From positions 16,616,001 through 16,680,000 of the forward strand of contig OZ249451.1 in NCBI GenBank assembly GCA_965235115.1: DNA of 64,000 bases, given 5' to 3'. A program made the translations under genes and the position numbers. The notes beneath the pieces are model-generated. The model ran no database searches, was not told the DNA's origin, and saw nothing but the letters and a program-made list of their open reading frames with translations. This stretch comes from Laetmonice hystrix (lineage: Eukaryota). Positions 26,663 to 62,059 of this stretch are shown here, piece by piece; position 1 is the stretch's first letter, and the number at the start of each line of letters is the position of its first letter.

Positions 26663-27835
26663 GCTTCCTCACCACGGATATAGGACTGCGCCAAACCGAT
26701 TCCGATGGTTCTAGAATCCCGGCATCTAATAACTGATCCACATGTTTGGTGAGCTCCGTCAGATGTCGCGGATTATACCGATATGGCGTTGATGTAACCA
26801 GCCGCGCATCCTGCTGTAACTCAATCCTCATCTGCGCTAAAGAGCAGGCGCCCAGCTCCTCCAGTGTTACCGCGAACGCCTCCCAGTGTTTCTGCAGCAT
26901 TGACTGAAACTTGACCTTCTCACTGTCCGAAAGAACCGAGCCTGAGAGATCAAACTTAATAGGGAAAAGTTTAGCGCCTTTCTGCATAGACGAGATGTCC
27001 TTCTCCTTGATATTCCTATGCAAAGCTGTCCTTGCCATATCCGGTATTTGTTATCCAAAACGGCAACCACGTCTTTCGTGTTGATCATCTGAATTTGATC
27101 CGTTAGATTCATGACACGTACCAAAACCCTGTTGGCAACAATGGTATTCAGCGTTTTTCCTGTTAAAAATGATTTCCTATTAAAGTCTGGAGAATGAGCT
27201 AATGCCGTCGTACTGTCTGGCAAATCCAGTGACGTCACACACGAAAGGACTACCTCCGAAAATGGTGGCAACTGTGTATCACGCGGAACATGGGCTGCAA
27301 CATGATCCCAAAGTCTTATCTGGCCTTTCTGAAAGTCGAGCGTCGCCTGTAACCGAAGTCAATCCCAACGCCGTACCCTTATTGCATTGTCGTCCTTCTG
27401 ACAAAGGTTTACCACCTTGGTTGCTGAGGGACGAATCTCCCGTTTCCCGAACGAGCGTAGCTGGAGTCGGGATTGAACAGTGTCTCATCATTCCTTTCTT
27501 GTTGCCGTGGAGGAAGGGGATTCCCGCGTCCCGAACGAGCATAGCGGGCGTCGGGATTGAACGGTGTCTGGTGTGTGCTTCCATAATTCCAGCTAGCCGG
27601 CTTTTTGTCCAAATGGCCGTAATCCCCATTCAGCCACTTACAGGTACTGGTAGCGTGCCCATAGACCACATGGTAAACGCAGTACGGTCGGCCCCCTTCA
27701 TTCCTAGGAGATGGTGGCCTGGGCTGTGTACCTCCCGGCGAACGTTGTCCGATACCTCTGTATAATCCACGGCCACCTCCTCGGCCGTTTCTGTGCTGAT
27801 CAACCCATCAATTGGCCCGTTCTGCTGGCATCGCT

Positions 27836-29418
27836 CGTCCAACTCCCGCCTTTGACAGCGCTCCTATTATTTCCTCCAGCGCCTGTGGAGTTTTGTCAAC
27901 CGCTGAACAAGCCCTATGTTTACTATCCACCGTTTCCAGCCGAGATGCCATCTCTACCGCCTCTCCGAAATTAGTGGGATTCTGTACCGCCAATAAATTA
28001 CTCAATGAATCCAGACCCCCTATAAAAACTGACATCAAAATTTGGTCGGACACATCATATCCACACTGTTTTTGTCTTAAAACTCCAGCAAATTCCAAAG
28101 CCGTCTGTCCTTTTTGCTGCCTCAATCCAAAGATATCTCGATGTTTCTGCCAGACGGGTCGTTTGTCGCTAAAAATGTCAATCATTTTCCCTTTTAGGAT
28201 TTGATATGACTCCCTGTCGGTGAAATCAGGGCTTTCATCCAGTCAGCTGTTCTGCCTTTAAGATCGTGTAAAGCCATAGCTAACGTGTGGTCATCTGGCC
28301 ATCCATATATTTTCGCCACGCTTTCCGTCTCATCAAAGTAGGTTTTTATATTTTCATTTGTGGCCCCTGTAAACGTCGGCAATGGCAGATTCGGGAATTT
28401 AAATCCCGTGGCACGTGGCTGTGCACTCAACCCGTTCCGGCCTTTCCCGTGGCTGTCATCGGTGTTCGGTGGCTCCGGCCTGCCCTGTGGTGCTATAATT
28501 ATGGTGCCTGGCGTGAGCGCGGCGATCAGTGGAGCATTATCTATGAAGACCATAAGGTGCCATACCCGCCACTCGCTCCGCTACTCGCCCCGCCGCTCGC
28601 CACTTGGCCCACTACTCGCCACTTGGCCCGCTACTCGCCCCGCTACTCGCTACTCGCCCCGCTAACGCTAACCCTAACACTAGCCCTAACACTAACCCTA
28701 ACACTAACCCTAACCCTAACCGGCGGGTAGCGGGGCGAGTGGCGAGTAGCGGGGCGAGTAGCGGGCCAAGTGGCGAGTAGCGGGGCGAGTGGCGAGCGGC
28801 GGGGCGAGTAGCGGAGCGAGTGGCGGGGCGAGTGGCAGGTATGTCACCTTATGGTCTTCATAGATAACGCTCCACCAATCGCTGCGCTCACGCCAGGCAC
28901 CATATAGCACCACAGGGCAGGCCGGAGCCACCGAACACCGATGACAGCCAGATGACCACACGTTAGCTATGGCTTTACACGATCTTAAAGGCAGAGCAGC
29001 TGACTGGATGAAAGCCCTTGATTTCACCCACAGGGAGTCATATCAAATCCTAAAAGGGAAAATGATTGACATTTTCAGCGACAAACGACCCGTCTGACAG
29101 AAACACCGAGATATCTTTGGATTGAGGCAGCAAAAAGGACAGACAGCTTTGGAATTTGCTGGAGTTTTAAGACAAAAACTGTGTGGATATGATGTGTCCA
29201 ACCAAATTTTGATGTCAGTTTTTATAGGGGGTCTGGATTCATTGAGTAATTTATTGGCGGTACAGAATCCGGGTTCCCACTAATTTCGGAGAGGCGGTAG
29301 AGATGGCATCTCGGCTGGAAACGGTGGATAATAAACATAGGGCTTGTTCAGCGGTTGAGAAAACTCCACAGGCGCTGGAGGAAATAATAGGAGCGCTGTC
29401 AAGGCGGGAGTTGGGCGA
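27836..29418. repeat. Fold-back inverted duplication of gag
   Basis: 28722-29418 is the reverse complement of 27836-28660 except for a ~170-bp deletion. Confidence 0.9.
28662..28721 (+). repeat. Degenerate telomere-type (CTAACC)n tract
   Basis: ctaacgctaaccctaacactagccctaacactaaccctaacactaaccctaaccctaacc, about 10 hexamers. Confidence 0.85.
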
Positions 29419-29469
29419 GTGGCGAGTAGCGGGGCGAGTGACGGGGCGAGTGGCGAGTAGCGGGCCGAG

Positions 29470-29975
29470 TGGCGGGTGATGTCACCTTCATAGTTATCTC
29501 CCTGTTGACCGACGGCTGCTGGCCCCAGCGCTGACGCTGGCTGCCGGACGGGAGCCCGTTGCTCCGGAGGGTGTGGCGGCGGTGTCCCCCCTCGGCCGCC
29601 CCCCCCCCTTGCGGGGGCCCCGGCGTCGGTGGGAGGACTACCGCTTGTCTCGGCGGTGAACCGCCTCGTCCAGCCATAACGGCCTCGCCCCGGGTGCGGT
29701 CGGTCGGGCGCGCGTGCGGAGTATGGAGGTGGCGGTGCCGTGCGGCGTAATCGTGCATTTGAACTGGGTCCTGTGTCTCGGCAATATCCCCGGCAGTGAA
29801 CAAACGTCCTTGTATTAATACTTTGTTGCCGTGTAATGCCACTGGCTCAAGCTCCGGATCTGATCTCAATTGTCTTTTCTTCCAGAAACTGAAGGACCGA
29901 GGGCCCGTGGCCATGCATACACAGGGACGGCAACCTTCATGAATGAAGATTAAAAAATTAAATTTCAAACTCTAA
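29470..29975 (-). pseudogene. Gypsy gag N-terminal fragment (also at about 33120-33600 and 45080-45560)
   Basis: RQLRSDPELEPVALHGNKVL matches RQLRSKPEFTQVELHDNQL at 18501. Confidence 0.7.
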
Positions 29976-30463
29976 CTGAGTGAGTAGTGGTGGCTTTATG
30001 CCGTGTTGGCATCCAGGGCCATCTTCACGGCGAACCAGAGTAAAAAGACCATAAAATGAAATGAAATGAAAGGGACTTATTTTATCCCGGGCCCCAACGG
30101 GAATAACATGGAGGATGGGAAGCATTGTGCCGTGAAAGAAGCTTTACATGGAAACAGTGGGCACGGGATGACGCGGACAGTGACAGTGCAGCCAATCATG
30201 GTATCTATTCAAAGACCTGGCATACCGTTGTAAAGTATTGGAATACTTTGGACTAGTTATACCCATTATTACTTATGATCCAATTAATTTATTAAACTTT
30301 ATTTACTTAGTTACTCATTTTAATCAACTCATATACTCATGGATATTTACCGTGTGGAGTTGTAATATACTATTTAGGATTGTGTGTGTATAGAAATCTG
30401 TGTGCTGCTTGCCATCTCTGCAAAGGAATGTCCAAGTAAATAAGTCAAGTGGATCTGGGTATC

Positions 30464-31328
30464 TGTGACGCCAACCCCAGCCTCCTGGAGGACGCTGGTG
30501 ACAGACCTGATTAATGGCACCCCTAACTCCTGTGGGTAACCCAGATCCAACCGACTCCAGGCACGCGCACCCCACAGACTGGGAGGGCTACACTCCCACT
30601 GCGCATGCCTAGTGTAAACAATTGAAGATAAGAGGAACCAGCCCCTCCTCCTGCTCATGCGCAGGACTGTGAAACTTTGAGGATGAGTCACGACTCAGGC
30701 ATGCTCCCATAATAGGACTGGGTGGTATATTTCACTCTTCCACTGCACATGCCTAGTATAAACATTTAAGGGTTGGGGTCTGCCCCCTCCCTCTGCACAT
30801 GCGCGGAACTTTATAACTTTAACGGTGGGATTTTTCCACACTCCTACTGCGCATGCTTAGTATAAACATTTAAGGGTTGGGGTCTGCCCCCTACCTCTGC
30901 ACATGCGCAGAACTTTATAACTTTAATGGTGGGATTTTTCCACACTCCTACTGCGCATGCTTAGTATAAACATTTAAGGGTTGGGGTCTGCCCCCTCCCT
31001 CTGCACATGCGCAGAACTTTATAACTTTAATGGTGGGATTTTTCCACACTCCTACTGCGCATGCTTAATGTAAACATTTCGAAGAAAGGAGTCAACCCCC
31101 TCCCTTTGCACATGCTCAGTAGGGGTCTCCTGATGCACCTCTCCACTATATAAACTCATACTTGTGTTAATAAAGTGACTTCTTATTTTTGGCTTTTCAA
31201 TCCTTGAGTTTGAATCTTTGATTCTCTCAGTGATCATGTTGATCATTTAAGCCAGTTTCTTATTTTATACTCTCAGTGAAATCCACAAACAGTAACCGGG
31301 CTACCAACCTTCATCTGGTTGAGTAACA
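30464..31328 (+). mobile_element. LTR-like segment with ~116-bp tandem enhancer-like repeats (second copy from about 42554)
   Basis: TGTGAC...GTAACA ends; 3-4 ctgcgcatgc/catgcgcag-rich repeats; TATATAAA near 31146 then AATAAA; no TSD seen. Confidence 0.45.
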
Positions 31329-32607
31329 CTCAGCATCAGAGATGTGTGGATTTTACACCGTGTCGGTGTGTTGGAGTACACCATTAGTAACTTTTAACAA
31401 ATACGGGTTTATACATCAGTTTTAGCTAGTCACACAATTCTCTATGTTAGAGTATCCAAACCAACAGCAAGCCTTAGCCAGAAGTGCAGCAGGTCCAACT
31501 ACAAAGTCATAAATCATTCGCCTACAGGAGGAAGGTTCAGCAGGTACAGCAGAAAAGCAATAACTCATCCACCTTACCAGCCCAAACCCCTCCATAGGTT
31601 CAGGTAGTGCAGGTTTAGTCACAAACCAAGAAAATCCCTGAAAAGCTGGTAGATATATATAGACGCGCAACCTTGCAGTAGTCGTATGTGGTTTTAACTT
31701 GGATACGAGCGGACGTGGAGTTCTCTCGCTCAGCACTTAGCTTTCTCATCAGCCCGCACTTGGGAGGTTTTCGGCATTCACCCTTTGCAATAGGAGATCA
31801 GTACGGGAACAAGACTTTGCAGATTCTTCGGAATTACTGAGAAACGCTTCGGATTCAGACTTTCAGACATTACACATCACAGCTACTAGGGAAGTTCAGA
31901 AAGGGAGGTGAGAGTCAAAACTTGTAGCGTATGTGAATATCCACTTGTACTTTACTTCAACTTCAGAGGAGACACTTGTACTTTACTTTAACTTTAGAGG
32001 AGACACTTGTACTTTACATCTACCACGAGGAGATATCTGTACTCTACACACGGACGGACTCTACATCCGGATTGTCTTAATAAATGTTTGAACCTTCGAC
32101 CGCTAGTCATCCCTCAGTCTGAGTTGGACCCCATCTCACGAAGCCATACGATAGAGCCTAGCTTACCCCTATGCTTAGAAGATATTGTCGGGCAAAACCC
32201 TCTCGCAATAGCCAAAGCTCTACCCCAACATCGAATACCCATTTAAACGACAAAACCCCAAACAACGGCCCGAAACATCGGCATGTAAGGCCATCTTCAC
32301 GGCAAAAACAGAGTCAGACTACTGAAAACTGAAAGGAACCTATTTTATCCCGGGTCCCAGAAGGAACACCACTCCCATATGTATATATGGACTGATGCCA
32401 TGTTCTGTCAGTTGCAAAACTCGAGCACAATGAGCCACAACGGATTTTTCGGTTCCAATGTGTTAATCCTGCCAACCAACGGAGCCCGGCCAGGTTGGCT
32501 ATACATAACAATCTGGCGGATGAGTGAGTGAGTGAGTGAGTGAGTGAGTAGTGGTGATTTTCCGCCGTGTCGGCATCCGGGGCCATATTCACGGCGAAAA
32601 CAGGGTT

Positions 32608-33025
32608 AAAGGCAGAGCAGCTGACTGGATGAAAGCCCTTGATTTCACCCACAGGGAGTCATATCAAATCCTAAAAGGGAAAATGATTGACATTTTCAGC
32701 GACAAACGACCCGTCTGGCAGAAACACCGAGGTATCTTTGGATTGATGCAGCAAAAAGGACAGCTTTGGAATTTGCTGGAGTTTTAAGACAAAAACAGTG
32801 TGGATATGATGTGTCGGACCAAATTTTGATGTCAGTTTTTATAGGGGGTCTGGATTCATTGAGTAATTTATTGGCGGTACAGAATCCCACTAATTTCGGA
32901 GAGGCGGTAGAGATGGCATCTCGGCTGGAAACGGTGGATAATAAACATAGGGCTTGTTCAGCGGTTGAGAAAACTCCACAGGCGCTGGTGGAAATAATAG
33001 GAGCACTGACAAAGGCGGGAGTTGG
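32608..33025 (+). pseudogene. Gypsy gag fragment fused to a truncated module (copy at about 44597-45015)
   Basis: KGRAADWMKALDFTHRESY...; junction cagggtt|aaaggcagagc has ttaaa microhomology. Confidence 0.85.
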
Positions 33026-35399
33026 GCGAGTGGCGAGTAGCGGGGCGAGTGGCGGGGCGAGTGGCGAGTAGCGGGGCGAGTGGCGGGGCGAGTGGCGAGT
33101 AGCGGGGCGAGTGGCGTGTGATGTCACCTTCATAGTTATCTCCCTGTTGACCGACGGCTGCTGGCCCCAGCGCTGACGCTGGCTGCCGGACGGGAGCCCG
33201 TTGCTCCGGAGGGTGTGGCGGCAGTGTCCCTCCTCGGCCGCCCCCCCTCCTTCGGTGGGAGGACTACCGCTTGTCTCGGCGGTGAACCGCCTCGTCCAGC
33301 CTGGCCTCGCCCCGGGTGCGGTCGGTCGGGCGCGCGTGCGGAGTATGGAGGTGGCGGTGCCGTGCGGCGTAATTGTGCGTTGGAACTGGGTCCTGTGTCT
33401 CGGCAATATCCCCGGCAGTGAATAAACGTCCTTGTATTAATACTTTGTTGCCGTGTAATGCCACTGGCTCAAACTCCGGATCTGATCTCAAAATTTTGTC
33501 TTTTCTTCCAGAAACTGAAGGACCGAGGGCCCGTGGCCATGCATACACAGGGACGGTAACCTTCATGAATGAAGATTAAAAAATTAAATTTCAAACTCTA
33601 ACTGAGTGAGTAGTGGTGGTTTTATGCCGTGTTGGCATCCAGGGCCATCTTCACGGCGAAAAATAAGGTAAAATAAAAGGAACCGATTTTATCCCGGGCC
33701 CCAACGTAACTGCCCCAATACCATGAGTAGCATCAGATAAAACTCATTTTGGTCAGCCCGACGTACGTTGATTGCGCACGCAACAACGTTACGTTTACGT
33801 TAGCGTTCCGCGGATGCGTGCTGTCTGCTAAAATTCTCTAGTGACGCGATGACGTAAACGTTAGGCCGGGGTTAGGCCCGGGATCCATCCCAGAGAGAAA
33901 CCCCTTATTTGGGTATGGTACAGAAGATTTTTTGTTGGATTCCCTTAGAAGGGCAAGATATTTAGGTACGGGAGATTCGGCATATATAAACCCCTAGAGA
34001 CTGGTAGAGGGGGTTGCCTACTCCATCCAGAGGTACAGATCGAGAGACACCCACCCATCTGTGAGAGATATAAACCGTCGGCGTACAGTTTCCTTATTTT
34101 CCACGGAAACGACACACTGTTGTAAACCAGACATGAGCCACACTGGCTTCATCGGAACTAATGTAATAATTTTGCCAACCACCGGCGCACAGCCAGGATG
34201 GTTGTAGATTACTATATGGCAGATGCCCGTGGCGCCCTCCACCGACGTGCAGACTTGCACGATCGAGGCAGCCTTATCTCCCCAAGTCGCTACCGGCAGC
34301 GGCGGCGCCCCTCATCAGGCGTCTGCCACCTCGACCGATTATGGGAGTGAGTGAGTAAGGGTGGTTTTCCTCCGTGTCGGCATCTGGGACCATCTTCACG
34401 GCGAAAACAGGGTTACAAGACCATAAAATAAAAGGAACCTATTTTTTCCCAGGCTCCAAGGGGAATATCATTTTCACTCCAGAATAGAACACCTAGAACG
34501 ACGTGCGCCTAGAGGCCGGACTCCTAATGATCAGGAAAATATTCAAAGATCTTATCCGGATAGCTTGGGCCAAGTTTATCGTCCTACCGGACAACAATGG
34601 GAGAGAACCACGGATTCCTCGAGCAACCCTTCATGCATCATTTGGGGTAGAAAATGATGCCACCAAGAGATACCAAACTCGTTTCAAACAGTTGCACGAC
34701 AAACAGAGGTGACAACTTTGATAGGCGGATGAGAAAGGCAAAGACAATTTTTTTTATGAGGGACCAACGCATGGGAGCTACACGGGTGGTTAATCGGGAG
34801 AAAGTTCAACAGAATCGATGGACACAGACACTCCCCATCCCAACCAGCCAGACCTGTTACACGATCAATGCAGAGAGACGCTAAGCGACAATGTACTCAT
34901 AACACTCACTATCACTGCTAGCACAGAAGGACGAAACGTGACCGAGTACTGGCTCATAGTGTCGCATGGACATGGATGTTAACTCATGACGTTATGACAT
35001 TATGAGTGTGACGTTAAACCGGCAAACCACCACAGACACCCCTACTTCACAAATGAACTGCAAGAGGACTGGCCATCCTTGAACGTCTGATTGAATCACA
35101 TCAACTTCCTTTACAACACATCCCATCATTATGCAGTTGTGGTAATTGTTGTGGTAATTAGCCTTGTGTATTGCGTGAACAAAATATTGTTTCATCAGAA
35201 AGCCAAAACATCCAGCTAAAGAGGACCTGATACCAGAGGAAAATACTCTAGAAATTACTGTGGCTAAAGATGCAGTGCCGTGGCCGAAACCAAATGCTTA
35301 AAACGATGTTTAATCAAAGGAAAATATGTTTCGCGCAAAGAAAGGTGTATGCAATGTAAGGTCATTAACCATTTATCAGACGCATTTAAAATGTTAACA

Positions 35400-35850
35400 G
35401 AAAGTACTGTGTTGGGGCTTTGCTCGTGAAATGGGTATCCGACAAAGCTTGAACAACATTGTGTATGCGTCTGTTTGTAATGTTAAACAGGATCGTTAAC
35501 CCTAACTTCATATCGTGACACAAGTCCCTTCAAATAGTCCTAAATTGATCTGCATTGGCCAAAATATCTTAATTCCGACCTGTCCTAAACAAATGATACG
35601 CGATGGAATTCAGGAACTCAAATGGAGCCTTAATAATCCGTTGTTTTGACCATCTTTCATCAGGCAACAATTGAAAAGCAGCATTGTAGTTCTCTTTCAC
35701 AGCTGTTAGCGTAGACTGCAGGCCCTGCTGAACATCTGCCAAGCAAGTGGAGATAGGGCGACAGAGCTCCCCAAGTCGCCCTGACAGCTGGATGGGGCAT
35801 GGAGAAAGGGGTTGAGAAGGTATTAGAAGGTTGACGTGTCCCAAACTGTG
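35400..35850 (-). pseudogene. env-like fragment of an LTR retroelement (copy at about 47400-47820)
   Basis: QRIIKAPFEFLNSIAYHLFRTG resembles the cleavage-site/fusion-peptide region of invertebrate env proteins; contains stops. Confidence 0.4.
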
Positions 35851-36766
35851 TGTTACAGACGCACCGCAGAGGACCCATTATATCCTGCGGAATCCGTGGG
35901 AGAGATACCTCACCATATACACAGGGTCACTGAGATATAGAGCCCCAAATCCGTCCACTGTGAACAAGCAGAGAAATAAGATCCAAACGTTGGTCTTAGC
36001 CATTATCCCAACTACCATTAAGATGGCAACAGCTTCTCGATACGTAGTTCTTAAAGAAAGTGTTATTATTCCAGTGAACGAAGTACCGTACGGCCAGGTG
36101 TGCCAAGTAATCTTGATGAGACCGTATCCAGGTGAGCCTGGACTTCTGTCAGAAGTAATCCAGCTGGGATCTGTGAGTTCAGTCCAAGTAGCCGGGGAGA
36201 AAATTCTGCCTATTGCCAACCGTCCCTCAGTAACATCCAGCCATCCAGCACCCTCCTACCTCCCGGCAAGGGGAGCGCGGCCGACCGGGAAGGATACCCC
36301 ACCCAAGCTATCTCCACAGCCCGGGCCGAGTGGGTGGCGACCAAGGCCAGCCTCCTCCAGTCCGTGTGAAGGTCCAGGCCGACGTCAGCCCGCTGAGAAG
36401 CTGGCTACCCGAAGGCACTCCTCAGGCCCCACCAGCGTTACTCAAAGTTTGGCCGTAACAGTGACCTCCTCAACAGGCTCTACTACCAGCACAGTGCATT
36501 CCAACTGCAACGAAACATCTAAAGCACTGTACAAAGTACTGGATAAACACCTAGGGCTTCCAACTCAAAACAGTTTAGCAGCACAACAACCCCCCGTATC
36601 CGAAGCTGAGACCACTGGACAATCCTTGGACACAGCCCTGTACGATCCACACTATTCACCTGTGTCTGGATCTCCTCACGAAAGTCTCCTAGTGGCTAGG
36701 CTGGACTTATATGAACAACTGCTGGGGCAAACTCACGATTGCCCCAGCAACTCCCTGCAGGAGTAA
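35831..36766 (+). CDS. Unknown ORF (first ATG 36023), globular N-terminus and S/P/T-rich tail; frameshifted copy at 47806
   Basis: 311-aa open frame, no family recognised. Confidence 0.35.
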   Translation: MTCPKLCVTDAPQRTHYILRNPWERYLTIYTGSLRYRAPNPSTVNKQRNKIQTLVLAIIPTTIKMATASRYVVLKESVIIPVNEVPYGQVCQVILMRPYPGEPGLLSEVIQLGSVSSVQVAGEKILPIANRPSVTSSHPAPSYLPARGARPTGKDTPPKLSPQPGPSGWRPRPASSSPCEGPGRRQPAEKLATRRHSSGPTSVTQSLAVTVTSSTGSTTSTVHSNCNETSKALYKVLDKHLGLPTQNSLAAQQPPVSEAETTGQSLDTALYDPHYSPVSGSPHESLLVARLDLYEQLLGQTHDCPSNSLQE

Positions 36767-37142
36767 AACGGTAACTGTTACCATTTGTCGAAGACATATC
36801 CTTCACGACGTCGACCCAACCAGCGACAACAGCTACCAGTGGGGTCGCCAACGCAACAGTATAGACCGACTATGCCGCCCTTTGACCCATATGCGACAAG
36901 GTTAGTGAGTGAGTAATGGTGGCTTTACGCCGTGTCGGCATCTAGGGCCATCTTTACAGTGAAAACAGAGTAAAAAGACCATAAAATGAAATAAAACGGA
37001 AGGGACCTATTTTATCCCGGGCCCCAACGGGAATATTATTGAAACATGGAGGACGGCAAGCATTGTGCCGTGAAAGAAGCTTGACATGGGAACGGAGGGC
37101 ACGGGATGATGCGGACGGTGACAGTGCCGCCAATCATGGTAT

Positions 37143-37983
37143 TGTGTTGGCTCACACTTACATGTAGTACCAATTAAATCAGAAACAGGGATAGACATAT
37201 AGGGGTATAATTCCTCACAAGGGAAGTAAGTTCATATACATCATAGGATTTAGTTCCTGGAGTACAGACGTACCAAATTGACTGACATATTTACTGGAGT
37301 GCACACGGACCAAGTTGACTCACATACATAATTCTGGGTACAAACGGACGAAGATGACCGACTCTGTCTAGACGTCTGGTGACCGACATCATTAAATATC
37401 CGACAGGAGCACGGGATTTCCAGGAATGGGCATAGAGGTAAGCCAATGAGAAAGAGGCAGGTAGGAGGTAAGGTAAGCCAATGAGAAAGAGGCACGTAAG
37501 AAGAGGGGATTTTACCCTGGAGAGAGAGAGGTATAAGTAGTCAGGAAAACGGGGAGATAGTGCGGGCTTACCAGAGAGAGAAATGCGTGAAGGGAGTTAG
37601 CAGAAGAGTTCCCGCTAGGGAGCTTGTGCGTGAGTTAAAATGCTATTCCTGGAGTATGGAGACGTTTTGGAGTATTGTACATGTTCAGAAGTTATTGTGG
37701 AAATAGACAACTTGGATTATGTTCGTCAATATAAGGATTTAACTACTCGGTGTGGAGGATGTGGAGTATAATAAAGGACCGAACCGGATTCCTGGAGTGT
37801 TGTCCATCTCACCCAACCCAGCGAAGTTATACCAGAGCTAGCTCACCCCTATTACGACTCTGGAACTTTATTGGGGTAGACCTCTCGCACTACTAACGGA
37901 GTAACAAACGGACTTCACACACAGCCCGATATACGGATATACGAAGCTTAAGTATACGAAATTAAAACAAACACCCCAACGCA
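37143..37983 (+). mobile_element. Solo Gypsy LTR (841 bp)
   Basis: TGTGTTGG...CCAACGCA, 4-bp TSD GTAT on both sides; shares aaaacggggagatag with LTR 17228. Confidence 0.88.
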
Positions 37984-40900
37984 GTATCATCTATTTCACC
38001 TCGAATTTTACTCTGCAAAAACTTGCCTGATAGCAACATTCACGACAATCACAGCTGAACCACTGCATCATCGCCAGCAATATGACCATTACTCATTACG
38101 AACTGGACATATTCCCTTTTGTGAAAATGATCAGGACATTCTCACGGCTCTATCATTGTGAAGATGGTCGATCTACCTTACTTAAACCTTATTTACCTGA
38201 TTTCACCTGGTCTCCAACTCCAGTAAGGTATCAGACAAAAAACAGTCCGACTACTTACTTCCTAAACCTGCCAATGATAGGACTGATACAGAAGATATAT
38301 TTGAACTGGGAGAGGGTGAGACAGACGGTAACGGGGATCCAGAGCGAACGCTACACAAAGCAGATCTGGACTTGCGTTGTCATTTGGGGGTCCACCCAAC
38401 TACAGTGAGTGAGTGAGTAGTGGTGGTTTTACGCCGTGTCGGCATCCAGGGCCATCTTCACAGCGAAAACAGTGTCAAAAGACCATAAAATTAAAGGAAC
38501 CTATTTTATCCCGGGCCCCAACGGGAATATGATTAAAACACACTCCATCCTGTCAGCCCAACAGGGCTCTCGAGCCAAAATTTATCTGTGTGCCTTTCAC
38601 AGAGAACAAGCCTGGGGCAAGTGGATGTGAGATGGTGATTACTCTCTTACGCTTCTTTTCCTATTTAGCTGAAAATAATTTTTATCATTAGGATATTACT
38701 GTTTTTAATAGTTTCATCATGTAACCCCAGAATTACATCATGTCAAAACGATTTTCTCTCCTTCTAGGAAAGAATGGCGTTAGCGAAGATGATAGGCAAC
38801 AGTTGAAGATGTTTCTGAGGGCTGTTGCAAATGCCATATCAAAGGATGAGCATGACAGATCTGTTGATGTCTATGTTCTAGTAGGAACATATATAGTTGT
38901 ATTAGGGTTGGATTAGTGTATTTGTTGTAAAACTTACAGTAGTACTGTCTAAATTCTACCTAGTAGGGGCTCCAAGCAGTCCCTCTATATCATCCATTCT
39001 TATTTACCACAAGTCATAACTCGGGGTAGAAGGAATCATTTGTTTGGCCCTGTCATCTTATCCTAGTTTTAATTGCCCATGTTTGAATATTTAATCGTCT
39101 CAAGTTTGGTTTAGAGCATTTGAGGTAAAACGTGTAGAAGTAGAACTGTTTTTGACAACTTTGTGTTGTACTAAGCTTTAACAGTTAAGGGTTTTGTACC
39201 TGGTGTGCTGTAAGTCGGGTGCTATACTTAATCATAGCTGTTAGGGGTTGCAAGCAATCCCTTATTGTCTTCTTATTTATCTTCCTATTTGCCTTCTTAT
39301 TTATCTTTGTACTAGTCGTAAGTCAAGAGTAGTTGGAAGCTGGGTCAGCGACTCAGCATGTTCTATGTAGTAGCCATCTGGAATTCCATACTACGGTGTT
39401 ATTTTATGTAAACAAACGTACTCTCATATCCCGAGAGGGGTCTTCAGAGTAATAAATCATTGTCATTGACTGCATTGTGACTGCACTGTGCTCAAGTCTC
39501 CCATAGAATTAAGCGCAGTTGGCACTGGTTCTACAAGAGATCCGCCTGTTTCCAGCGGCAAGAAAAGCATTCTGGCATCTGGATCCGGGGAAACCTGACG
39601 ACGGATAGATCCCTGCCGGGCCTGCTAACCCAGTGCTGTCTCTGCGCTGGATTGGCCCTGCTGCCCCAAGGTGTGTGTTAGCATATCCACACCAACAGCA
39701 GGTTTAGCCCGAAGTCCAGACCGTCCGTGCGTGGGCGTGGCCATATGGAGGGCTGAGACGTCAGTCTTCAACCACTCCTGGAGATCTGATCTCCTGTTGG
39801 CCACCCTTTGAAGTGCCGGGGTTGGGGACAATTCCCATTGGTCACCATTCCCATTGGCTGCAGCCCTCCCTTAAGACGGGCTGCACGGCTTGGAATCGGG
39901 GAGAGTGATCCACCCTCTCCAATGGGACGGCAGCCAACCCCCCCCCCCCGCCCGAGCAGCAGTCGAGCAGCAGGCGTGGGAGCAGCATTCAGCGCAGTTG
40001 GCAGCACTGGTTCTTCTAGAGATTCGTCCAGCGGCAAAGAAGAGCATTCTGGCATATCTGGCCCGGCTACGGCTGGCGACTGATAGATCCCTGCCGGGCC
40101 TTCTTACCCAGTGCTGTCTACTGAGCCAGATTTACCCTGCTGCTCTGCGGTGTGTGTTTGGTGTGACTGGCTTGCCTCTCAAAGGAGTGGCGCTCTCCAC
40201 AACCCATGCACCCCTCCCCATCCGTCTTTTGAAAAACATCTTTTCGGTGCTTCAGAATTTGGCGTTTACATCACAATATATATCCTTGTGCATATTGTAA
40301 GACACCTTGGAAAAAACAATCCCCACAGCTCACAGATATCAGCTCACTGAGAAAACATCCAGAAACAGATCATTGGCAAAATAATAATACCGGCATGTTA
40401 AATTATACCATCATCTAATGCCAATATCTCTTTAGAGAAGAATTCTGGAAACAGATTAAGACCACTGTAGAGGTGAGTGAGTCAGTGAGTAATGGTGGGT
40501 TTACGCTGTGATGGCATCTATGGCCATCTTCACCGCGGAGTAAGACTACTGAATAGTAAAAGGGACATATTTCATCCCGGGTCTCTACGGGAACTACTGA
40601 GAGGAGTATAAAAGACCTCGGTGACTAAAGGTCCAGATACACAGACCGATTTACGGCCGATTTTGATCTGCGGCCGGTTTTTCTCCATAGGTTTCCATAG
40701 GGTTGTTGTCGTGGGGGAAAGGCCCTTGTGTCCCTTTATTGGAGGTTCCAGACATGCATGGGTATGTGTTATACACACAAGCCGCTGGAGGGAGAAGTGA
40801 CTCCAGCTGGTATAGAAATTAGGATTTGGGGCTCTAACCGACACGCCGGGGTTCGATTCCCCGTCTAGATAAGTGCTGCTAGAGAAACGCTGGCGGCTAG

Positions 40901-43900
40901 CACAGCTGGGATATTTCGAGTTAGCGAACAAGGAGGTTGGATCCTCCTCTGTTTACTGTATTGACGCGATGACGCACACGGGGGTGTAAAGTATTGACGC
41001 GATGACGTAAAAGCTCTACCCCAACTCAAAGTCAATCACGCAATCATCTAATACCCCTTAAACACACAAAACACAACCCAAAACAACCCGACGCAGTGCT
41101 AAACACGTCGATTCATTCAGGGCTACATTGTGAGATCTACTGGCGAGCTTTTGCTGGTGCATCTAGATTCAAGAGTCGTAGCTATAAAGATATTCAGCAC
41201 ACTTGAGAACATCTTTGAGTAATAACGTTTGTCGAAACATTCACGATTTCTTTCAAAGTTATGCAGGAGGAAAGCATTTTTCCTGGTCAATATGCATTGC
41301 AATGTATTCCAACTCATAAGGTATGATAATTCCAATTCGTTGCATTTATTTAATGAGGGTGGGGATTTCGCGATGAATTATGTGCATTAGAAAAGTCTGA
41401 TTCGCCCTTAGAAATGTTAAAGGGAGGGACGTTTCTTACTATGTTAGCGAACATTTTGGGTATCAGTTTCCAGATAAAGCACTCCGAATTTTCAGAGGGC
41501 ATCCCCAAGAAATGTAAACAAGGGGAAAACATCGCGTTTAGTTTCGTGAGTGAGTGAGTAATCGTGGTTTTACGCCGTGTCGGCATCCAGGGCCATCTTC
41601 ACGGCGAAAACAGAGTAAAAAGACCATAAAATGAAAGGGACCTATTTTATCCCGAGCCCCAACGGGAATATCATTGAAGCACACCCCAATAGGGCTACCG
41701 ACAAGCCAGAACTATAAAAGAGTCAGAAGTTTGTTCCTTGTATATTTCGCTATATATTTTCAGAGTGCATTCTTATTCAACTGTCTCTATGAGAAAATAA
41801 TTAGAATTCCAACCGACATCCCCAAATTTATAATCAGTGAAATATCTGAGAAGCACAACACGTCATTTCATCCATAAGGCCAGACTCAGAAATGGGGTGT
41901 GTATATATTGCCATGGACACTGTGTAGTAAAAATCGGTGTGCTCCCCAGAGAGGTTTTTACACTCCCATGTTGTGGAATGTTAATGCATTTTCGGTGCTT
42001 CAGAATTTGCCGTTTACATCACAATATATATCCATGTGCATATTGTAAGACACCTTGGGTAAATCAATCCCCACAAGCCACAGGTCTCAGTTCAGAAAAC
42101 GTCCAAAAACAGATAATCGGGAAAATAATAGCAAGTGAACAGTTTTGGTGGATTCCAAATACATAATCGACTGAATTCGGAATTCCCTATAGTCTAGCTG
42201 GTGACGAGACAATGCACATTTAAGGGGGATAAACGGTCAAAAGCTATAACACGGGTAAAAAGCGTTATAAATACTATCTCTCTGACGGCATTGCTCACAT
42301 CATGCTGTAAAGTATTGAAATACTTTGGACTAATTATACCCATCATTAATTATGTTCCAATTAATTAATTAAATTTTATTTACTTAGTTACTTATTTTAA
42401 TCAACTCATATACTCATGGATATTTACCCTTACATATATATGTGTGGAGTTTCAATATACTATTTAGAATTGTGTGTGTATAGAAATCTGTGTGCTGCTT
42501 GCCATCTCTGCAAAGGAATGTCCAAGTAAATAAATCAAGTGGATCTGGGTATCTGTGACGCCAACCCCAGCCTCCTGGAGGACGCTGGTGACAGACCTGA
42601 TTAATGGCACCCCTAACTCCTGTGGGTAACCCGGATCCAACCGACTCCAGGCATGCGCACACCACAGACTGGGAGGGCTACACTCCCACTGCGCATGCCT
42701 AGTGTAAACAATTGAAGATAAGAGGGACCAGCCCCTCCTCCTGCTCAAGCGCAGGACTGTGAAACTTTGAGGATGAGTCATGACTCAGGCATGCTCTCAT
42801 AATAGGACTGGGTGGTATATTTCCACTCTTCCACTGCGCATGCCTAGTATAAACATTTAAGGGTTGGGGTCTGCCCCCTCCCTCTGCACATGCGCAGAAC
42901 TTTATAACCTTAATGGTGGTATATTTCCACTCTTCCACTGCGCATGCCTAGTATAAACATTTAAGGGTTGGGGTCTGCCCCCTCCCTCTGCACATGCGCA
43001 GAACTTTATAACTTTAATGGTGGGATTTTTCCACACTCCTACTGCGCATGCTTAATGTAAACATTTCGAAGAAAGGAGTCAACCCCCTCCCTTTGCACAT
43101 GCTCAGTAGGGGTCTCCTGATGCACCTCTCCACTATATAAACTCATACTTGTGTTAATAAAGTGACTTCTTATTTTTGGCTTTTCAATCCTTGAGTTTGA
43201 ATCTTTGATTCTCTCAGTGATCATGTTGATCATTTAAGCCAGTTTCTTATTTTATACTCTCTCAGTGAAATCCACAAACAGTAACCGGGCTACCAACCTT
43301 CATCTGGTTGAGTAACACTCAGCATCAGAGATGTGTGGATTTTACACCGTGTCGGTGTGTTGGAGTACACCATTAGTAACTTTTAACAAATACGGGTTTA
43401 TACATCAGTTTTAGCTAGTCACACAATTCTCTATGTTAGAGTATCCAAACCAACAGCAAGCCTTAGCCAGAAGTGCAGCAGGTCCAACTACAAAGTCATA
43501 AATCATTCGCCTACAGGAGGAAGGTTCAGCAGGTACAGCAGAAAAGCAATAACTCATCCACCTTACCAGCCCAAACCCCTCCATAGGTTCAGGTAGTGCA
43601 GGTTTAGTCACAAACCAAGAAAATCCCTGAAAAGCTGGTAGATATATATAGACGCGCAACCTTGCAGTAGTCGTATGTGGTTTTAACTTGGATACGAGCG
43701 GACGTGGAGTTCTCTCGCTCAGCACTTAGCTTTCTCATCAGCCCGCACTTGGGAGGTTTTCGGCATTCACCCTTTGCAATAGGAGATCAGTACGGGAACA
43801 AGACTTTGCAGATTCTTCGGAATTACTGAGAAACGCTTCGGATTCAGACTTTCAGACATTACACATCACAGCTACTAGGGAAGTTCAGAAAGGGAGGTGA

Positions 43901-46900
43901 GAGTCAAAACTTGTAGCGTATGTGAATATCCACTTGTACTTTACTTCAACTTCAGAGGAGACACTTGTACTTTACTTTAACTTTAGAGGAGACACTTGTA
44001 CTTTACATCTACCACGAGGAGATATCTGTACTCTACACACGGACGGACTCTACATCCGGATTGTCTTAATAAATGTTTGAACCTTCGACCGCTAGTCATC
44101 CCTCAGTCTGAGTTGGACCCCATCTCACGAAGCCATACGATAGAGCCTAGCTTACCCCTATGCTTAGAAGATATTGTCGGGCAAAACCCTCTCGCAATAG
44201 CCAAAGCTCTACCCCAACATCGAATACCCATTTAAACGACAAAACCCCAAACAACGGCCCGAAACATCGGCATGTAAGGCCATCTTCACGGCAAAAACAG
44301 AGTCAGACTACTGAAAACTGAAAGGAACCTATTTTATCCCGGGTCCCAGAAGGAACACCACTCCCATATGTATATATGGACTGATGCCATGTTCTGTCAG
44401 TTGCAAAACTCGAGCACAATGAGCCACAACGGATTTTTCGATTCCAATGTGTTAATCCTGCCAACCAACGGAGCCCGGCCAGGTTGGCTATACATAACAA
44501 TCTGGCGGATGAGTGAGTGAGTGAGTGAGTGAGTGAGTAGTGGTGATTTTCCGCCGTGTCGGCATCCGGGGCCATATTCACGGCGAAAACAGGGTTAAAG
44601 GCAGAGCAGCTGACTGGATGAAAGCCCTTGATTTCACCCACAGGGAGTCATATCAAATCCTAAAAGGGAAAATGATTGACATTTTCAGCGACAAACGACC
44701 CGTCTGGCAGAAACACCGAGGTATCTTTGGATTGATGCAGCAAAAAGGACAGCTTTGGAATTTGCTGGAGTTTTAAGACAAAAACAGTGTGGATATGATG
44801 TGTCGGACCAAATTTTGATGTCAGTTTTTATAGGGGGTCTGGATTCATTGAGTAATTTATTGGCGGTACAGAATCCCACTAATTTCGGAGAGGCGGTAGA
44901 GATGGCATCTCGGCTGGAAACGGTGGATAATAAACATAGGGCTTGTTCAGCGGTTGAGAAAACTCCACAGGCGCTGGTGGAAATAATAGGAGCACTGACA
45001 AAGGCGGGAGTTGGGCGAGTGGCGAGTAGCGGGGCGAGTGGCGGGGCGAGTGGCGAGTAGCGGGGCGAGTGGCGTGTGATGTCACCTTCATAGTTATCTC
45101 CCTGTTGACTGACGGCTGCTGGCCCCAGCGCTGACGCTGGCTGCCGGACGGGAGCCCGTTGCTCCGGAGGGTGTGGCGGCAGTGTCCCTCCTCGGCCGCC
45201 CCCCCTCCTTCGGTGGGAGGACTACCGCTTGTCTCGGCGGTGAACCGCCTCGTCCAGCCTGGCCTCGCCCCGGGTGCGGTCGGTCGGTCGCGCGTGCGGA
45301 GTATGGAGGTGGCGGTGCCGTGCGGCGTAATCGTGCGTTGGAACTGGGTCCTGTGTCTCGGCAATATCCCCGGCAGTGAATAAACGTCCTTGTATTGATA
45401 CTTTGTTGCCGTGTAATGCCACTGGCTCAAACTCCGGATCTGATCTCAAAATTTTGTCTTTTCTTCCAGAAACTGAAGGACCGAGGGCCCGTGGCCATGC
45501 ATACACAGGGACGGCAACCTTCATGAATGAAGATTAAAAAATTAAATTTCAAACTCTAACTGAGTGAGTAGTGGTGGTTTTATGCCGTGGCATCCAGGGC
45601 CATCTTCACGGCGAAAAATAAGGTAAAATAAAAGGAACCGATTTTATCCCGGGCCCCAACGTAACTGCCCCAATACCATGAGTAGCATCAGATAAAACTC
45701 ATTTTGGTCAGCCCGACGTACGTTGATTGCGCACGCAACAACGTTACGTTTACGCGGATGCGTGCTGTCTGCTAAAATTCTCTAGTGACGCGATGACGTA
45801 AACGTTAGGCCGGGGTTAGGCCCGGGATCCATCCCAGAGAGAAACCCCTTATTTGGGTATGGTACAGAAGATTTTTTGTTGGATTCCCTTAGAAGGGCAA
45901 GATATTTAGGTACGGGAGATTCGGCATATATAAACCCCTAGAGACTGGTAGAGGGGGTTGCCTACTCCATCCAGAGGTACAGATCGAGAGACACCCACCC
46001 ATCTGTGAGAGATATAAACCGTCGGCGTACAGTTTCCTTATTTTCCACGGAAACGACACACTGTTGTAAACCAGACATGAGCCACACTGGCTTCATCGGA
46101 ACTAATGTAATAATTTTGCCAACCACCGGCGCACAGCCAGGATGGTTGTAGATTACTATATGGCAGATGCCCGTGGCGCCCTCCACCGACGTGCAGACTT
46201 GCACGATCGAGGCAGCCTTATCTCCCCAAGTCGCTACCGGCAGCGGCGGCGCCCCTCATCAGGCGTCTGCCACCTCGACCGATTATGGGAGTGAGTGAGT
46301 AAGGGTGGTTTTCCTCCGTGTCGGCATCTGGGACCATCTTCACGGCGAAAACAGGGTTACAAGACCATAAAATAAAAGGAACCTATTTTTTCCCAGGCTC
46401 CAAGGGGAATATCATTTTCACTCCAGAATAGAACACCTAGAACGACGTGCGCCTAGAGGCCGGACTCCTAATGATCAGGAAAATATTCAAAGATCTTATC
46501 CGGATAGCTTGGGCCAAGTTTATCGTCCTACCGGACAACAATGGGAGAGAACCACGGATTCCTCGAGCAACCCTTCATGCATCATTTGGGGTAGAAAATG
46601 ATGCCATCAAGAGATACCAAACTCGTTTCAAACAGTTGCACGACAAACAGAGGTAACAACTTTGATAGGCGGATGAGAAAGGCAAAGACAACTTTTTGAT
46701 GAGGGACCAACGCATGGGAGCTACACGGGTGGTTAATCGGGAGAAAGTTCAACAGAATCGATGGACACAGACACTCCGCATCTCAACCAGCCAGACCTGT
46801 TACACGATCAATGCAAGGAGACGCTAAGCGACAATGTACTCATAACACTTAGTGGTTATCCTGAGTGGGATACTCCTCACTATCACTGCTAGCACAGAAG

Positions 46901-49112
46901 GACGAAACGTGACCGAGTACTGGCTCATAGTGTCGCATGGACATGGATGTTAACTCATGACCTTATGCCATTATGAGTGTGACGTTATCATCACCGGCAA
47001 ACCACCACAGACACCCCTACTTCACAAATGAACTGCAAGAGGACTGGCCATCCTTGAACGTCTGATTGAATCACATCAACTTCCTTTACAACACATCCCA
47101 TCATTATGCAGTTGTGGTAATTGTTGTGGTAATTAGCCTTGTGTATTGCGTGAACAAAATATTGTTTCATCAGAAAGCCAAAACATCCAGCTAAAGAGGA
47201 CCTGATACCAGAGGAAAATACTCTAGAAATGACTGTGGCTAAAGATGCAGTGCCGTGGCCGAAACCAAATGCTTAAAACGATATTTAATCAAAGGAAAAT
47301 ATGTTTCGCGCAAAGAAAGGTGTATGCAATGTAAGGTCATCAACCATTTATCAGACGCATTTAAAATGTTAACAGAAAGTACTGTGTTGGGGCTTTGCTC
47401 GTGAAATGGGTATCCGACAAAGCTTGAACAACATTGTGTATGCGTCTGTTAGTAATGTTAAACAGGATCGTTAACCCTAACTTCATATCGTGACACAAGT
47501 CCCTTCAAATAGTCCTGAATTGATCTGCATTGGCCAAAATATCTTAATTCCGACCTGTCCTAAACAAATGATACGCGATGGAATTCAGGAACTCAAATGG
47601 AGCCTTAATAATCCGTTGTTTTTACCATCTTTCATCAGGCAACAATTGAAAAGCAGCATTGTAGTTCTCTTTCACAGCTGTTAGCGTAGACTGCAGGCCC
47701 TGCTGAACATCTGCCAAGCAAGTGGATATAGGGCGACAGAGCTCCCCAAGTCGCCCTGACAGCTGGATGGGGCATGGAGAAAGGGGTTGAGAAGGTATTA
47801 GAAGGTTGACGTGTCCCAAACTGTGTGTTACAGACGCACCGCAGAGGACCCATTATATCCTGAGGAATCCGTGGGAGAGATACCTCACCATATACACAGG
47901 GTCACTGAGATATAGAGCCCCAATTCCGTCCACTGTGAACAAGCAGAGAAATAAGATCCAAACGTTGGTCTTAGCCATTATCCCAACTACCATTAAGATG
48001 GCAACAGCTTCTCGCTACGTAGTTCTTAAAGAAAGTGTTATTATTCCAGTGAACGAAGTACCGTACGGCCAGGTGTGCCAAGTAATCTTGATGAGACCAT
48101 ATCCAGGTGAGCCTGGACTTCTGTCCGAAGTAATCCAGCTGGGATCTGTGAGTTCAGTCCAAGTAGCCGGGGAGAAAATTCTGCCTATTGCCAACCGTCC
48201 CTCAGTAACATCCAGCCATCCAGCACCCTCCTACCTCCCGGCAAGGGGAGCGCGGCCGACCGGGAAGGATACCCCACCCAAGCTATCTCCACAGCCCGGG
48301 CCGAGTGGGTGGCGACCAAGGCCAGCCTCCTCCAGTCCGTGTGAAGGTCCAGGCCGACGTCAGCCCGCTGAGAAGCTGGCTACCCGAAGGCACTCCTCAG
48401 GCCCCACCAGCGTTACTCAAAGTTTGGCCGTAACAGTGACCTCCTCAACAGGCTCTACTACCAGCACAGTGCATTCCAACTGCAACGAAACATCCAAAGC
48501 ACTGTACAAAGTACTGGATAAACACCTAGGGCTTCCAACTCAAAACAGTTTAGCAGCAACCCCCCGTATCCGAAGCTGAGACCACTGGACAATCCTTGGA
48601 CACAGCCCTGTACGATCCACACTATTCACCTGTGTCTGGATCTCCTCACGAAAGTCCCCTAGTGGCTAGGCTGGACTTATATGAACAACTGCTGGGGCAA
48701 ACTCACGATTGCCCCAGCAACTCCCTGCAGGAGTAAAACGGTAACTGTTACCATTTGTCGAAGACATATCCTTCACGACGTCGTCCCAACCAGCGACAAC
48801 GGCTACCAGTGGGGTCGCCAACGCAACAGTATAGACCGACTATGCCGCCCTTTGACCCATATGCGACAAGGTTAGTGAGTGAGTAATGGTGGCTTTACGC
48901 CGTGTCGGCATCTAGGGCCATCTTTACAGTGAAAACAGAGTAAAAAGACCATAAAATAAAATAAAACGAAAGGGACCTATTTTATCCCGGGCCCCAACGG
49001 GAATATTATTGAAACATGGAGGACGGCAAGCATTGTGCCGTGAAAGAAGCTTGACATGGGAACGGAGGGCACGGGATGATGCGGACGGTGACAGTGCCGC
49101 CAATCATGGTAT

Positions 49113-52900: not shown

Positions 52901-53365
52901 CAAGCTTTTCAAAGTATTCTACAATTTAGTTCTTCTTCTGTTAATGACTACATCTGGGGAAAGGAAGTGGGGAGAAGATTAACTTAGTTCCTCTGCCTGC
53001 GGGTATATAGCAGACCGTATGGTTCAGATCGGCTGTCATGAAAAGTCACACTATCCAAGGACTGCCTGCCCTCTATGTCCACAGTCTTAATCTTCTCACG
53101 GTTTTATGGCCATCTCACCAACTCATTGCATTCCTGTGTCTATAGAGAATCCCTTGTTCCCGTAAATTTTGTGAAAGATTTATTTTCCCAATCTAGGTCC
53201 CAGATGATGCACCAAGCATTTTCTTAGTCCATTCTTTCACAGAGCAGAAGCAACTAACTCGCACTTCCATTCTTTCGTCTCTGAATATCCAGTTCAAAGC
53301 TACAGTCTATTTTTATTATTTCCATTGACGAAGTGGAAACTGATATAATTGGTAACATCGAAACA

Positions 53366-61720: not shown

Positions 61721-62059
61721 GAGTTTCTCCTTTTCATATTAGTTTCTGATAAAATGTCTATTATATGATTGTTGGCCAAAACCATGTTCTGTGAAAGTTT
61801 GCATTTCACAGTTCACCATCTGATTCTACTGCCTCTGTTTCCAACACAAGGTAGATATGTTTTCATATTCCCTAAAGTCAGGTCTTTCAACATTACACCG
61901 ATTTTCTGATTGCTAAGTGAATTTCACTCGTTTTATCTCATTTACATTTTACAAATAAGAGCACATGTTTCATTGCCGTTTTAGTCCACCCCCCGACACT
62001 CCGAGTACATCCGACACCGAAATCTTGGAAAATGCTGACTCTTCTACGACCAAGAAGAG

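Follow-up and report, generated by a model that had tools for sequence, protein, structure and literature searches.

The repeated modules in the window, the 64,000-nucleotide stretch of Laetmonice hystrix DNA analysed here, are 5′-truncated LINE 3′ ends lying on one strand of a transposon nest, and the flanks that some of them share probably arose through local segmental duplications whose breakpoints fell at times on the module direct repeats. The polarised domain spans 29977..63714 and holds 23 LINE fragments, all in minus sense. Such one-strand domains, 20–50 kb in size, are characteristic of this LINE genome-wide.

The module is the 3′ end of an I-group LINE

Read on the minus strand, the module consists of a hairpin and an (ACTC)n tail, and extension of its sequence enters an open reading frame with RNase H, identifying it as the 3′ end of a putative Nimb-like LINE of the I group. 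A full-length copy of 5.7 kb encodes an ORF1 of 480 residues and an ORF2 of 1230 residues with the layout APE-RT-RNase H, the three domains required of the I group, for which Pfam returned Exo_endo_phos_2, RVT_1 and RNase_H. For ORF1, which lies upstream and is a candidate gag-like protein with CCHC knuckles, no Pfam family was named; Cys/His knuckles are visible in the translation of a paralogue. There are at least 1352 copies in the genome, counted as exact matches to one 20-mer (706 forward and 646 reverse), with a fixed tail end, a simple-repeat tail, variable 5′ truncation and, often, target site duplications (TSDs) of 10–14 bp, within the 10–15 bp of the I group. TSDs of 12–14 bp were found at 5 of the 16 dispersed loci in which the LINE 5′ end fell inside the locus, four by script and one (L006) by eye. 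The same ORF1/ORF2 layout, TSDs of 10–15 bp with lengths peaking at 12–13 bp, and 5′-truncated inserts joined through microhomology or extra bases are described for Nimb-2_DR (PMC4245944); unlike here, strand-polarised clusters are not mentioned in the available excerpts of that paper. Modules in the window belong to several subfamilies, with 72–96% identity to the young reference (ref) against which positions are numbered.

The minus-strand hairpin forms in five of seven folded copies with modest z-scores (−0.2 to −2.4), so that the hairpin alone is no evidence of a selected structure. A ribozyme reading found no support in an Rfam scan of the window, in which no module was matched and the four matches were all weak microRNA-precursor ones below gathering scores.

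Organisation of the locus

The spacers between modules are scraps of LTR, gag, env and DNA-transposon sequence. To the left of the array a foldback inverted duplication (27834..29419; arms 27834–28299 and 28947–29419, 2.4% apart) flanks a dispersed palindromic element (28541–28863) that carries a CCCTAA run. Segment A (28985..29976), composed of an inverted gag piece, the foldback-element end and a gypsy-type leader, leads into the module at 29977..30109 (minus strand, ref 6–129), whose tail meets the leader at a TGA microhomology. It has no TSD and is followed by segment B (30107..30204), which is locus-specific. Beyond a copy of a dispersed LTR-like repeat, itself internally repetitive with a 104-bp unit (30229..31330), lie a minus-strand LINE 3′ end of a diverged subfamily (31339..32359), interrupted by a solo LTR at 31367–32277 with the TSD TCGG, two minus-strand pol-env intergenic scraps of an env-bearing gypsy-type family (32360..32521) and a minus-strand module of younger type (32521..32610, ref 1–75). 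The truncated end of the latter meets A′ (32606..33602), the local duplicate of A, through a TTAAA microhomology.

Next comes the minus-strand module at 33603..33706 (ref 6–119), followed over 33707..34344 by the end of a high-copy repeat (33706–33843) and an old minus-sense pol-env intergenic scrap (33842–34337). A minus-strand module without a TSD (34345..34472, ref 3–130) then precedes segment F (34473..36900), which has integrase/env scraps in plus sense, a minus-sense env scrap, and an open frame of 316 codons (35816–36766) that is specific to the locus and matches no Pfam family. The minus-strand module referred to as 36905 (36901..37046, ref 1–136) is followed by B′ (37047..37142). Further downstream, 42306..52228 is a young duplicate of 30229–40244, 12 kb away and with 0.9% substitutions over 30824–40244; its left end is the second copy of the LTR-like repeat. 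The minus-strand module at 61510..61588 (ref 1–66) has its own 13–14 bp TSD, with one mismatch, and is an independent co-oriented insertion. It is the one module of the 14 tested in the window with a TSD, a rate below that among dispersed copies, so that most junctions in the window are not demonstrable as separate insertions and stitching by template jumps could account for some.

Shared flanks and a switch within the module

The earlier note had reported that modules 29977 and 33603 share a left junction, immediately before gagtgag, and that 29977 and 36905 share a related right flank; both are present in the sequence. The left flank is a 1.05-kb local duplication (28985–29976 and 32606–33602) in which 21 of 961 aligned bases are substituted (2.2%). 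The right flanks, 30107–30204 and 37047–37142, align over about 96 bp with 9 substitutions in 96 (9.4%), making B/B′ the older duplication, and a genome search with this flank gave three matches, every one inside this locus. The switch of diagnostic sites inside the module that the earlier note had proposed to look for is real in the trio. Over the left half (ref 6–61) 29977 differs from 33603 at 1 of 55 positions and from 36905 at 7 of 55, and over the right half (ref 62–119) the differences are 8 of 48 and 3 of 58, respectively. Its description of modules as exchange points holds insofar as at least one exchange lies within a module and three flank pairings out of four are present, but dedicated exchange points find no support. 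The possibility it had raised that shared flanks simply belong to something longer applies to the left flank, which is a gypsy-type leader, but not to the module–flank junctions, which are local.

The order of events would seem to differ from that first proposed, in which 29977 is the hybrid, formed by a crossover between the ancestors of 33603 and 36905 with loss of the 3.3 kb between them. The topology is compatible with this, 29977 agreeing with 33603 over its left half and with 36905 over its right half. A single duplication and pop-out would, however, leave both halves of 29977 equally young, contradicted by the 2.2% on its left against 9.4% on its right (Fisher p = 8e-4). Of the 85 copies that cover ref 23, only 29977 and 36905 have the derived C there; they also have a 10-bp insertion in common, and among eight candidates 29977 gives the worst alignment to the right half of 33603; 33603 is therefore likely the hybrid, its left half of the 29977 lineage and its right half from a GGAACC-type copy, with 29977 the likely donor. 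The subfamily states A27-A72-G94 are likewise coherent in 29977 and 36905, but 33603 pairs A27 with A94, a combination found in 4 of 17 A27 copies. A hybrid 29977 would now require two steps, with an extra old crossover, and we regard it as unlikely. The right half of 33603 is A-rich and its alignment ambiguous. The target continuation past ...AACTGA is present in a C2 relative and absent at the 29977 locus.

Proposed history of the locus

The array may have begun with repeated insertion of the LINE into the nest by target-primed reverse transcription in a single orientation. A module with B would then have been duplicated (about 9% divergence), with a new left flank gained at the (GAGT)n tail or close to it, and the products would be 29977 and 36905. 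Later (about 2%), A and the left half of 29977 would have been copied into the module at 32536 to give the hybrid 33603, one joint using the TTAAA microhomology and the other homology at ref ~62–68; a tandem duplication followed by a deletion between direct modules would yield the same product. Most recently (about 1%), an LTR-bounded 12-kb duplication would have copied the block. Under this order 33603, which has T at ref 23, must have undergone back-mutation or patchy conversion there.

Direct interspersed repeats recombine ectopically by non-allelic homologous recombination, single-strand annealing or microhomology-mediated template switching. As in such events, there is a hybrid repeat at one junction, microhomology at the other end, and local duplications and deletions, but the substrates here are only 60–220 bp long and 5–13% diverged. 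Further local duplications of this age have their breakpoints outside modules, at the foldback element (2.4%), at the LTRs of the 12-kb block and at 41319/58036. With breakpoints at unlike positions and these other duplications broken at LTRs or the foldback element, the flank mixing in the trio is probably ordinary ectopic recombination, and shuffled flanks by themselves are ordinary transposon-nest turnover. Two duplications change flank exactly at the tail (29977/36905, and 57705 against 58269/41546), which RNA-mediated copying would also give.

Strand polarity of the LINE copies

Six of the 23 same-strand matches in the window lie inside the 12-kb duplicate, and none were found in the remaining ~230 kb of the 264 kb examined; from 2417 first-look genome candidates only ~0.13 matches would be expected in the pile-up by chance. 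Among clusters chosen for density, copies were on the same strand in 23/23 cases in the window, 19/19 at C5:26.08 Mb, 11/11 at C1:67.03 Mb, 9/9 at C1:33.94 Mb, 20/23 at C3:0.44 Mb, 5/5 at C3:0.31 Mb, 7/7 in L083 and 2/3 at C2:36.73 Mb. Neighbouring pairs among the 240 matches listed (the first 100 of 1352, 40 of 40 and the first 100 of 193, local duplicates included) were on the same strand in 25/28 cases below 5 kb and 27/31 at 5–20 kb (52/59 under 20 kb), in 25/36 at 20–50 kb and 20/35 at 50–200 kb, and beyond that in 17/35 and 25/54. Shuffling had been suggested as what preserves co-orientation, but copies with their own TSD and flanks are co-oriented too, at 61510 and in other clusters; of the TSD-bearing insertions in clusters, 11 of 12 are co-oriented with no jump involved. 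Target-sequence strand bias was rejected as the cause, a model from 72 flanks predicting only 50–53% same-strand pairs.

Other transposable elements in the clusters are of mixed orientation, which counts against a simple all-antisense cluster. The locus is TE-dense with a strand bias specific to one family, as in a unistrand piRNA cluster. The favoured explanation of the polarity, at about even odds, is that copies are retained or targeted with respect to a transcript from one strand, with local contributions from duplication and template jumping. A title-level literature search found no paper on strand-polarised I/Nimb LINE clusters.

Alternative explanations

Much of the array could instead have been stitched by the LINE reverse transcriptase, which would copy a short 3′ end, jump to a foreign template and jump back, forcing the modules into one orientation, with the duplications coming later. 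One TSD around several LINE 3′ ends is the signature of such template jumping and occurs at two other loci: C5:26080431–26084765 has three within one 13-bp TSD, separated by foreign spacers of 325 bp and 27 bp, and C3:0.32 Mb has three head-to-tail copies within one 11-bp TSD (read by eye). Tail-to-truncation joints also abut at C3:0.44 Mb and L014, double jumps within one TSD have been described (PMC2104539), and 13 of the 14 window modules tested carry no TSD. Against it, left-flank words searched over 45 kb downstream gave no TSD around any window chain, the only other word match (38405 and 59098, 11 bp) being within chance; the range of subfamilies suggests unlike insertion times, the spacers occur in both senses, 11 of 12 TSD-bearing insertions in clusters are co-oriented without a jump, and the 325-bp spacer at C5 has no source locus except one partial match at 82%. 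For this window the explanation is thus rather doubtful. Also rather doubtful is a broader role for the LINE as a directional genome stitcher. It would target one-strand domains of 20–50 kb, and its reverse transcriptase would, within a single insertion, link several LINE 3′ ends to foreign DNA or RNA; the outcome would be polarised patchworks with tails as preferred rearrangement points.

Short co-oriented hairpin repeats separating unrelated segments also recall an integron-like system, with the module serving as recombination site and the spacers as functional cassettes, the term the earlier note had used. Here, however, the spacers consist of transposon scraps, the module comes from the end of a LINE, and there is no fixed crossover base, the switches lying at ref ≤22, ~62–68 and 75. 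A search of the array for intact cassette genes with a linked recombinase found neither: Pfam applied to 107 array frames of 68 or more codons named a Tc1-type transposase and, below its cut-off, a single weak DUF, and the sole tyrosine recombinase in the window (3131–4123) belongs to a gag-RT-recombinase (DIRS-type) element 26 kb away, making a dedicated system extremely improbable. Collapsed or mis-joined repeats in the assembly are very improbable as the source of the mixed flanks: the region is repeat-rich and the 29977 and 33603 junctions fall outside the bridged set, but the duplicates diverge by 0.9–9.4% with private indels, and read-derived contigs (from one sample, possibly the source of the assembly) bridge the junctions of segment F with modules 34345 and 36901, and also the one at 40477, with at least 31 letters on each side. 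Contig joints inside modules with sides of 19–30 letters could stem from any of more than 1000 copies and were not counted as alternative pairings. In two runs segment F has roughly double the contig depth of 40288–40510, as expected from the 12-kb duplicate, though this is no measure of copy number. A telomeric retrotransposon array of HeT-A/TART type, or telomere healing, was rejected: the locus is interstitial, at 16.6 of 23.6 Mb, and the CCCTAA run lies inside the dispersed palindromic element.

Comparison with known systems

Among the chimeras reported to arise by LINE template jumping, a tripartite retroelement in Magnaporthe sits within a 14-bp TSD (PMC2104539) and R2 jumps to U12 and tRNA (PMC3414825); the C5 chain resembles these in having one TSD around several fused templates, but, unlike those described, re-enters the LINE's own 3′ end twice, with up to four switches. 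Human CLIQUEs, with Alu pair exclusion, are also non-LTR clusters biased to one orientation (inverted:direct 0.385), but are reported as uninterrupted queues of median 638 bp, whereas unrelated TE DNA lies between the copies here; outside CLIQUEs the ratio is given as 0.989 at 7.4–50 kb, against 4:27 here at 5–20 kb among the matches listed (PMC3215922). Flamenco-like unistrand piRNA clusters are described as similarly TE-dense, with one family enriched and strand-biased and others not, but there the family is Gypsy and the loci are 227–1085 kb, whereas here it is a LINE in domains of 20–50 kb (PMC10643416). In the tail-to-internal tandems reported for Drosophila non-LTR elements, including telomeric arrays, an intact 3′ end joins a 5′-truncated co-oriented neighbour, as here, but those are direct and come from double insertion, whereas the present copies are interstitial and mostly 0.3–5 kb apart (PMC5932611).

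The feature most worth attention is the polarity, with about 88% of neighbours within 20 kb on the same strand among the matches listed, unexplained by target sequence and, at this range, far stronger than in the human Alu case as reported (PMC3215922). The TSD-enclosed chain at C5 is a natural case in which an I-group reverse transcriptase has jumped templates repeatedly. If the polarity does reflect one-strand piRNA loci tuned to this LINE, or strand-directed insertion, the tail motif would be a simple marker of such loci and of their direction.

Modules are the 3′ ends of a LINE

One 20-mer of the module, a short minus-strand repeat whose copies are named here by start position, has 1352 exact matches across the 627-Mb animal genome holding the window. 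Across 18 further loci the copies keep a constant left boundary, a (GAGT)n run, whereas their right boundary varies, and longer ones reach a minus-strand frame bearing RNase H. A full-length copy of 5.7 kb at 0.51 Mb on contig C3 contains ORF1 (480 aa) and ORF2 (1230 aa), the latter with APE, RT and RNase H. Target-site duplications (TSDs) of 12–14 bp are seen at 5 of 16 dispersed copies, those with a visible 5′ end (one of the five by eye); for Nimb-2_DR the TSDs peak at 12–13 bp (PMC4245944). The fixed end, the RNase H frame, the full-length copy and the TSDs identify the module as the 3′ end of a LINE of the I group, putatively Nimb-like. On the RNA strand a hairpin lies upstream of the tail in five of seven folded copies, with modest z-scores.

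The cassettes that the earlier note placed between modules give way to LINE tails separated by transposon scraps. An env-bearing gypsy-type element supplies the shared left flank, which consists of its leader and gag. On contig C2 a longer relative runs on after ...AACTGA, and this continuation is missing in the window, which indicates that the LINE tail is joined to the leader at a TGA microhomology with loss of the target continuation. Further spacers comprise LTRs, pol–env intergenic scraps, the end of a high-copy repeat, integrase/env scraps and a Tc1-type transposase; a solo LTR, itself flanked by a 4-bp TSD, interrupts one module. Two locus-specific frames match no Pfam family, one of 316 codons (35816–36766) and one of 284 (59370–60224), diverged pieces of the latter recurring at 40242, 41737–42163 and 58460–58951. 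Within the array, an unbroken 435-codon frame (53464–54771) has a DDE_3 (Tc1-type) transposase domain. The window also holds a DIRS-type element (373–4126; zinc-finger frame, RT and tyrosine recombinase) and a young gypsy-type element (17228–26651; LTRs 99.6% alike) with a 51-bp tandem array in its pol region (22273–22671). Fragments in the window were compared with an env-bearing gypsy-type element whose LTRs are 99.9% identical (C2:36252721–36265504, extracted loci L111–L112). Frames at C1:67042532–67043737 (L052) and 67069143–67070033 (L054–L055) look by eye like parts of a Polinton-type capsid and DNA polymerase; in the second interval, LINE tails have inserted between the polymerase-like pieces.

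Exchange within modules

The junctions quoted in the earlier note are present in the assembly. Self-alignment gives a 1.05-kb left-flank duplicate of modules 29977 and 33603 (A, 28985–29976; A′, 32606–33602), a right-flank duplicate of about 96 bp at 29977 and 36905 (B, 30107–30204; B′, 37047–37142), B occurring three times genome-wide, all at this locus, and a block of about 10 kb (30229–40244) copied 12 kb downstream (42306–52228). Read-derived contigs, from three runs of a single sample, which is possibly the source of the assembly itself, bridge the junctions 34345|F, F|36901 (F being the spacer 34473–36900) and 40477.

The expected switch of diagnostic sites within the module is found: 29977 differs from 33603 at 1/55 positions in the left half and 8/48 in the right, and from 36905 at 7/55 and 3/58. 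Two 3′ and two 5′ junctions occur in three of their four pairings, so at least one exchange is required. That 29977 is the recombinant does not hold as a single step from 33603 and 36905, since A/A′ (21/961 substitutions) and B/B′ (9/96) are unequal in age (Fisher p = 8e-4). The hybrid is likely to be 33603, judging from the following sites. Between 29977 and 36905 the differences are spread fairly evenly over B and both module halves; the two copies share a 10-bp insertion and, alone among 85 copies, C at reference position 23. Both carry the states A27-A72-G94, which are linked across the family (G94 in 13/13 A72 copies); 33603 pairs A27 with A94. For the right half of 33603, alignment scores are 40 with 29977 and 60 with GGAACC-type copies, and the 8/48 changes there, set against a 2.2% background, give p about 1e-5. 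A′ begins within module 32536, at reference position 75, via TTAAA, present in both parents. In the simplest history, an old copy of module plus B would have acquired a new left flank close to the tail; later, a copy of A and the left half of 29977 would have entered module 32536, and the right half of that module would be the present end of 33603. The price would be one event, a back-mutation or conversion patch at position 23.

Modules look over-represented among breakpoints, which are few and were counted post hoc. The proposal that they act as exchange points stands insofar as short direct repeats served as breakpoints in local rearrangement, but other breakpoints occur. The 10-kb block starts within an LTR, and the 41319/58036 duplicate has both ends outside modules, whereas the 56719/57855 duplicate and 57705/58269 pair do end within LINE sequence. 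A foldback inversion of similar age (11/465 substitutions) is centred on a palindromic dispersed element (28541–28863) with an internal CCCTAA run and many relatives genome-wide.

Polarity of LINE clusters

All 23 LINE matches in the 264 kb examined lie on one strand within 29977–63714, six of them inside the downstream duplicate. Majority-strand counts at other dense loci, several picked after their density was seen, are 19/19 (C5:26.08 Mb), 11/11 (C1:67.03 Mb), 9/9 (C1:33.94 Mb), 20/23 (C3:0.44 Mb), 5/5 (C3:0.31 Mb), 7/7 (L083) and 2/3 (C2:36.73 Mb). Shuffling is not what preserves co-orientation, as the flanks at these loci are mostly distinct and 11 of 12 TSD-bearing cluster insertions lie on the local majority strand, a count omitting a single offset 25-nt match and the three copies at C2:36.73 Mb, of which two are identical and the third has the opposite orientation. 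Among the 240 pattern matches listed, local duplicates included, same-strand neighbours number 25/28 below 5 kb, 27/31 at 5–20 kb, 25/36 at 20–50 kb, 20/35 at 50–200 kb, 17/35 at 200–1000 kb and 25/54 beyond. Ten successive matches of one subfamily share a strand over about 340 kb (C3:6.55–6.90 Mb), longer than most polarised domains. Among the papers listed by a literature search, none concerned polarised I/Nimb LINE clusters.

Target-sequence bias was rejected as the source of polarity because the model predicts only 50–53% same strand. Purging of inverted pairs at human Alu strength is likewise too weak, since at 7.4–50 kb the human Alu pairs that lie outside CLIQUEs are almost balanced (inverted:direct 0.989; PMC3215922). 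In the C5 and C1:33.9 Mb clusters the LINE is mostly opposite to host elements; in the window it is opposite to some and parallel to gypsy-type pieces, other transposable elements being mixed. Flamenco-like clusters also have a family-specific strand bias, limited there to Gypsy (PMC10643416), whereas here the biased family is the LINE. Given this precedent and the two failed candidates, we prefer an account, to which we give about an even chance, in which copies would have been retained or targeted according to their orientation to a putative one-strand transcript.

The array could instead have been stitched by LINE reverse transcriptase jumping between templates. A single 13-bp TSD at C5:26080431–26084765 (L114:431–4765) encloses three LINE 3′ ends with foreign spacers of 325 bp and 27 bp; a 2.5-kb element with inverted ends was inserted there afterwards. 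At C3:0.32 Mb (317662–322546 onward, L125–L126) one 11-bp TSD holds three head-to-tail copies, two of 2.4 kb with identical truncation and one full-length. Both chains match template jumps known within one insertion (PMC2104539) and for LINEs (PMC3414825), and their sequence shows the enzyme able to join unrelated pieces in one orientation; tail-to-truncation tandems are also described as arising by double insertion (PMC5932611). In the window, however, no TSD was found enclosing any chain of modules, and 61510 is the only one of 14 tested modules with a TSD, so stitching is there only a rival account. It seems rather unlikely that the LINE is a directional stitcher, targeting one-strand domains of 20–50 kb and chaining its 3′ ends with foreign DNA or RNA. 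Integrons and HeT-A/TART served as known systems for comparison. The LINE is a new member of a known group, and the associated rearrangement is ordinary ectopic recombination, whose named modes between direct repeats are NAHR and single-strand annealing.
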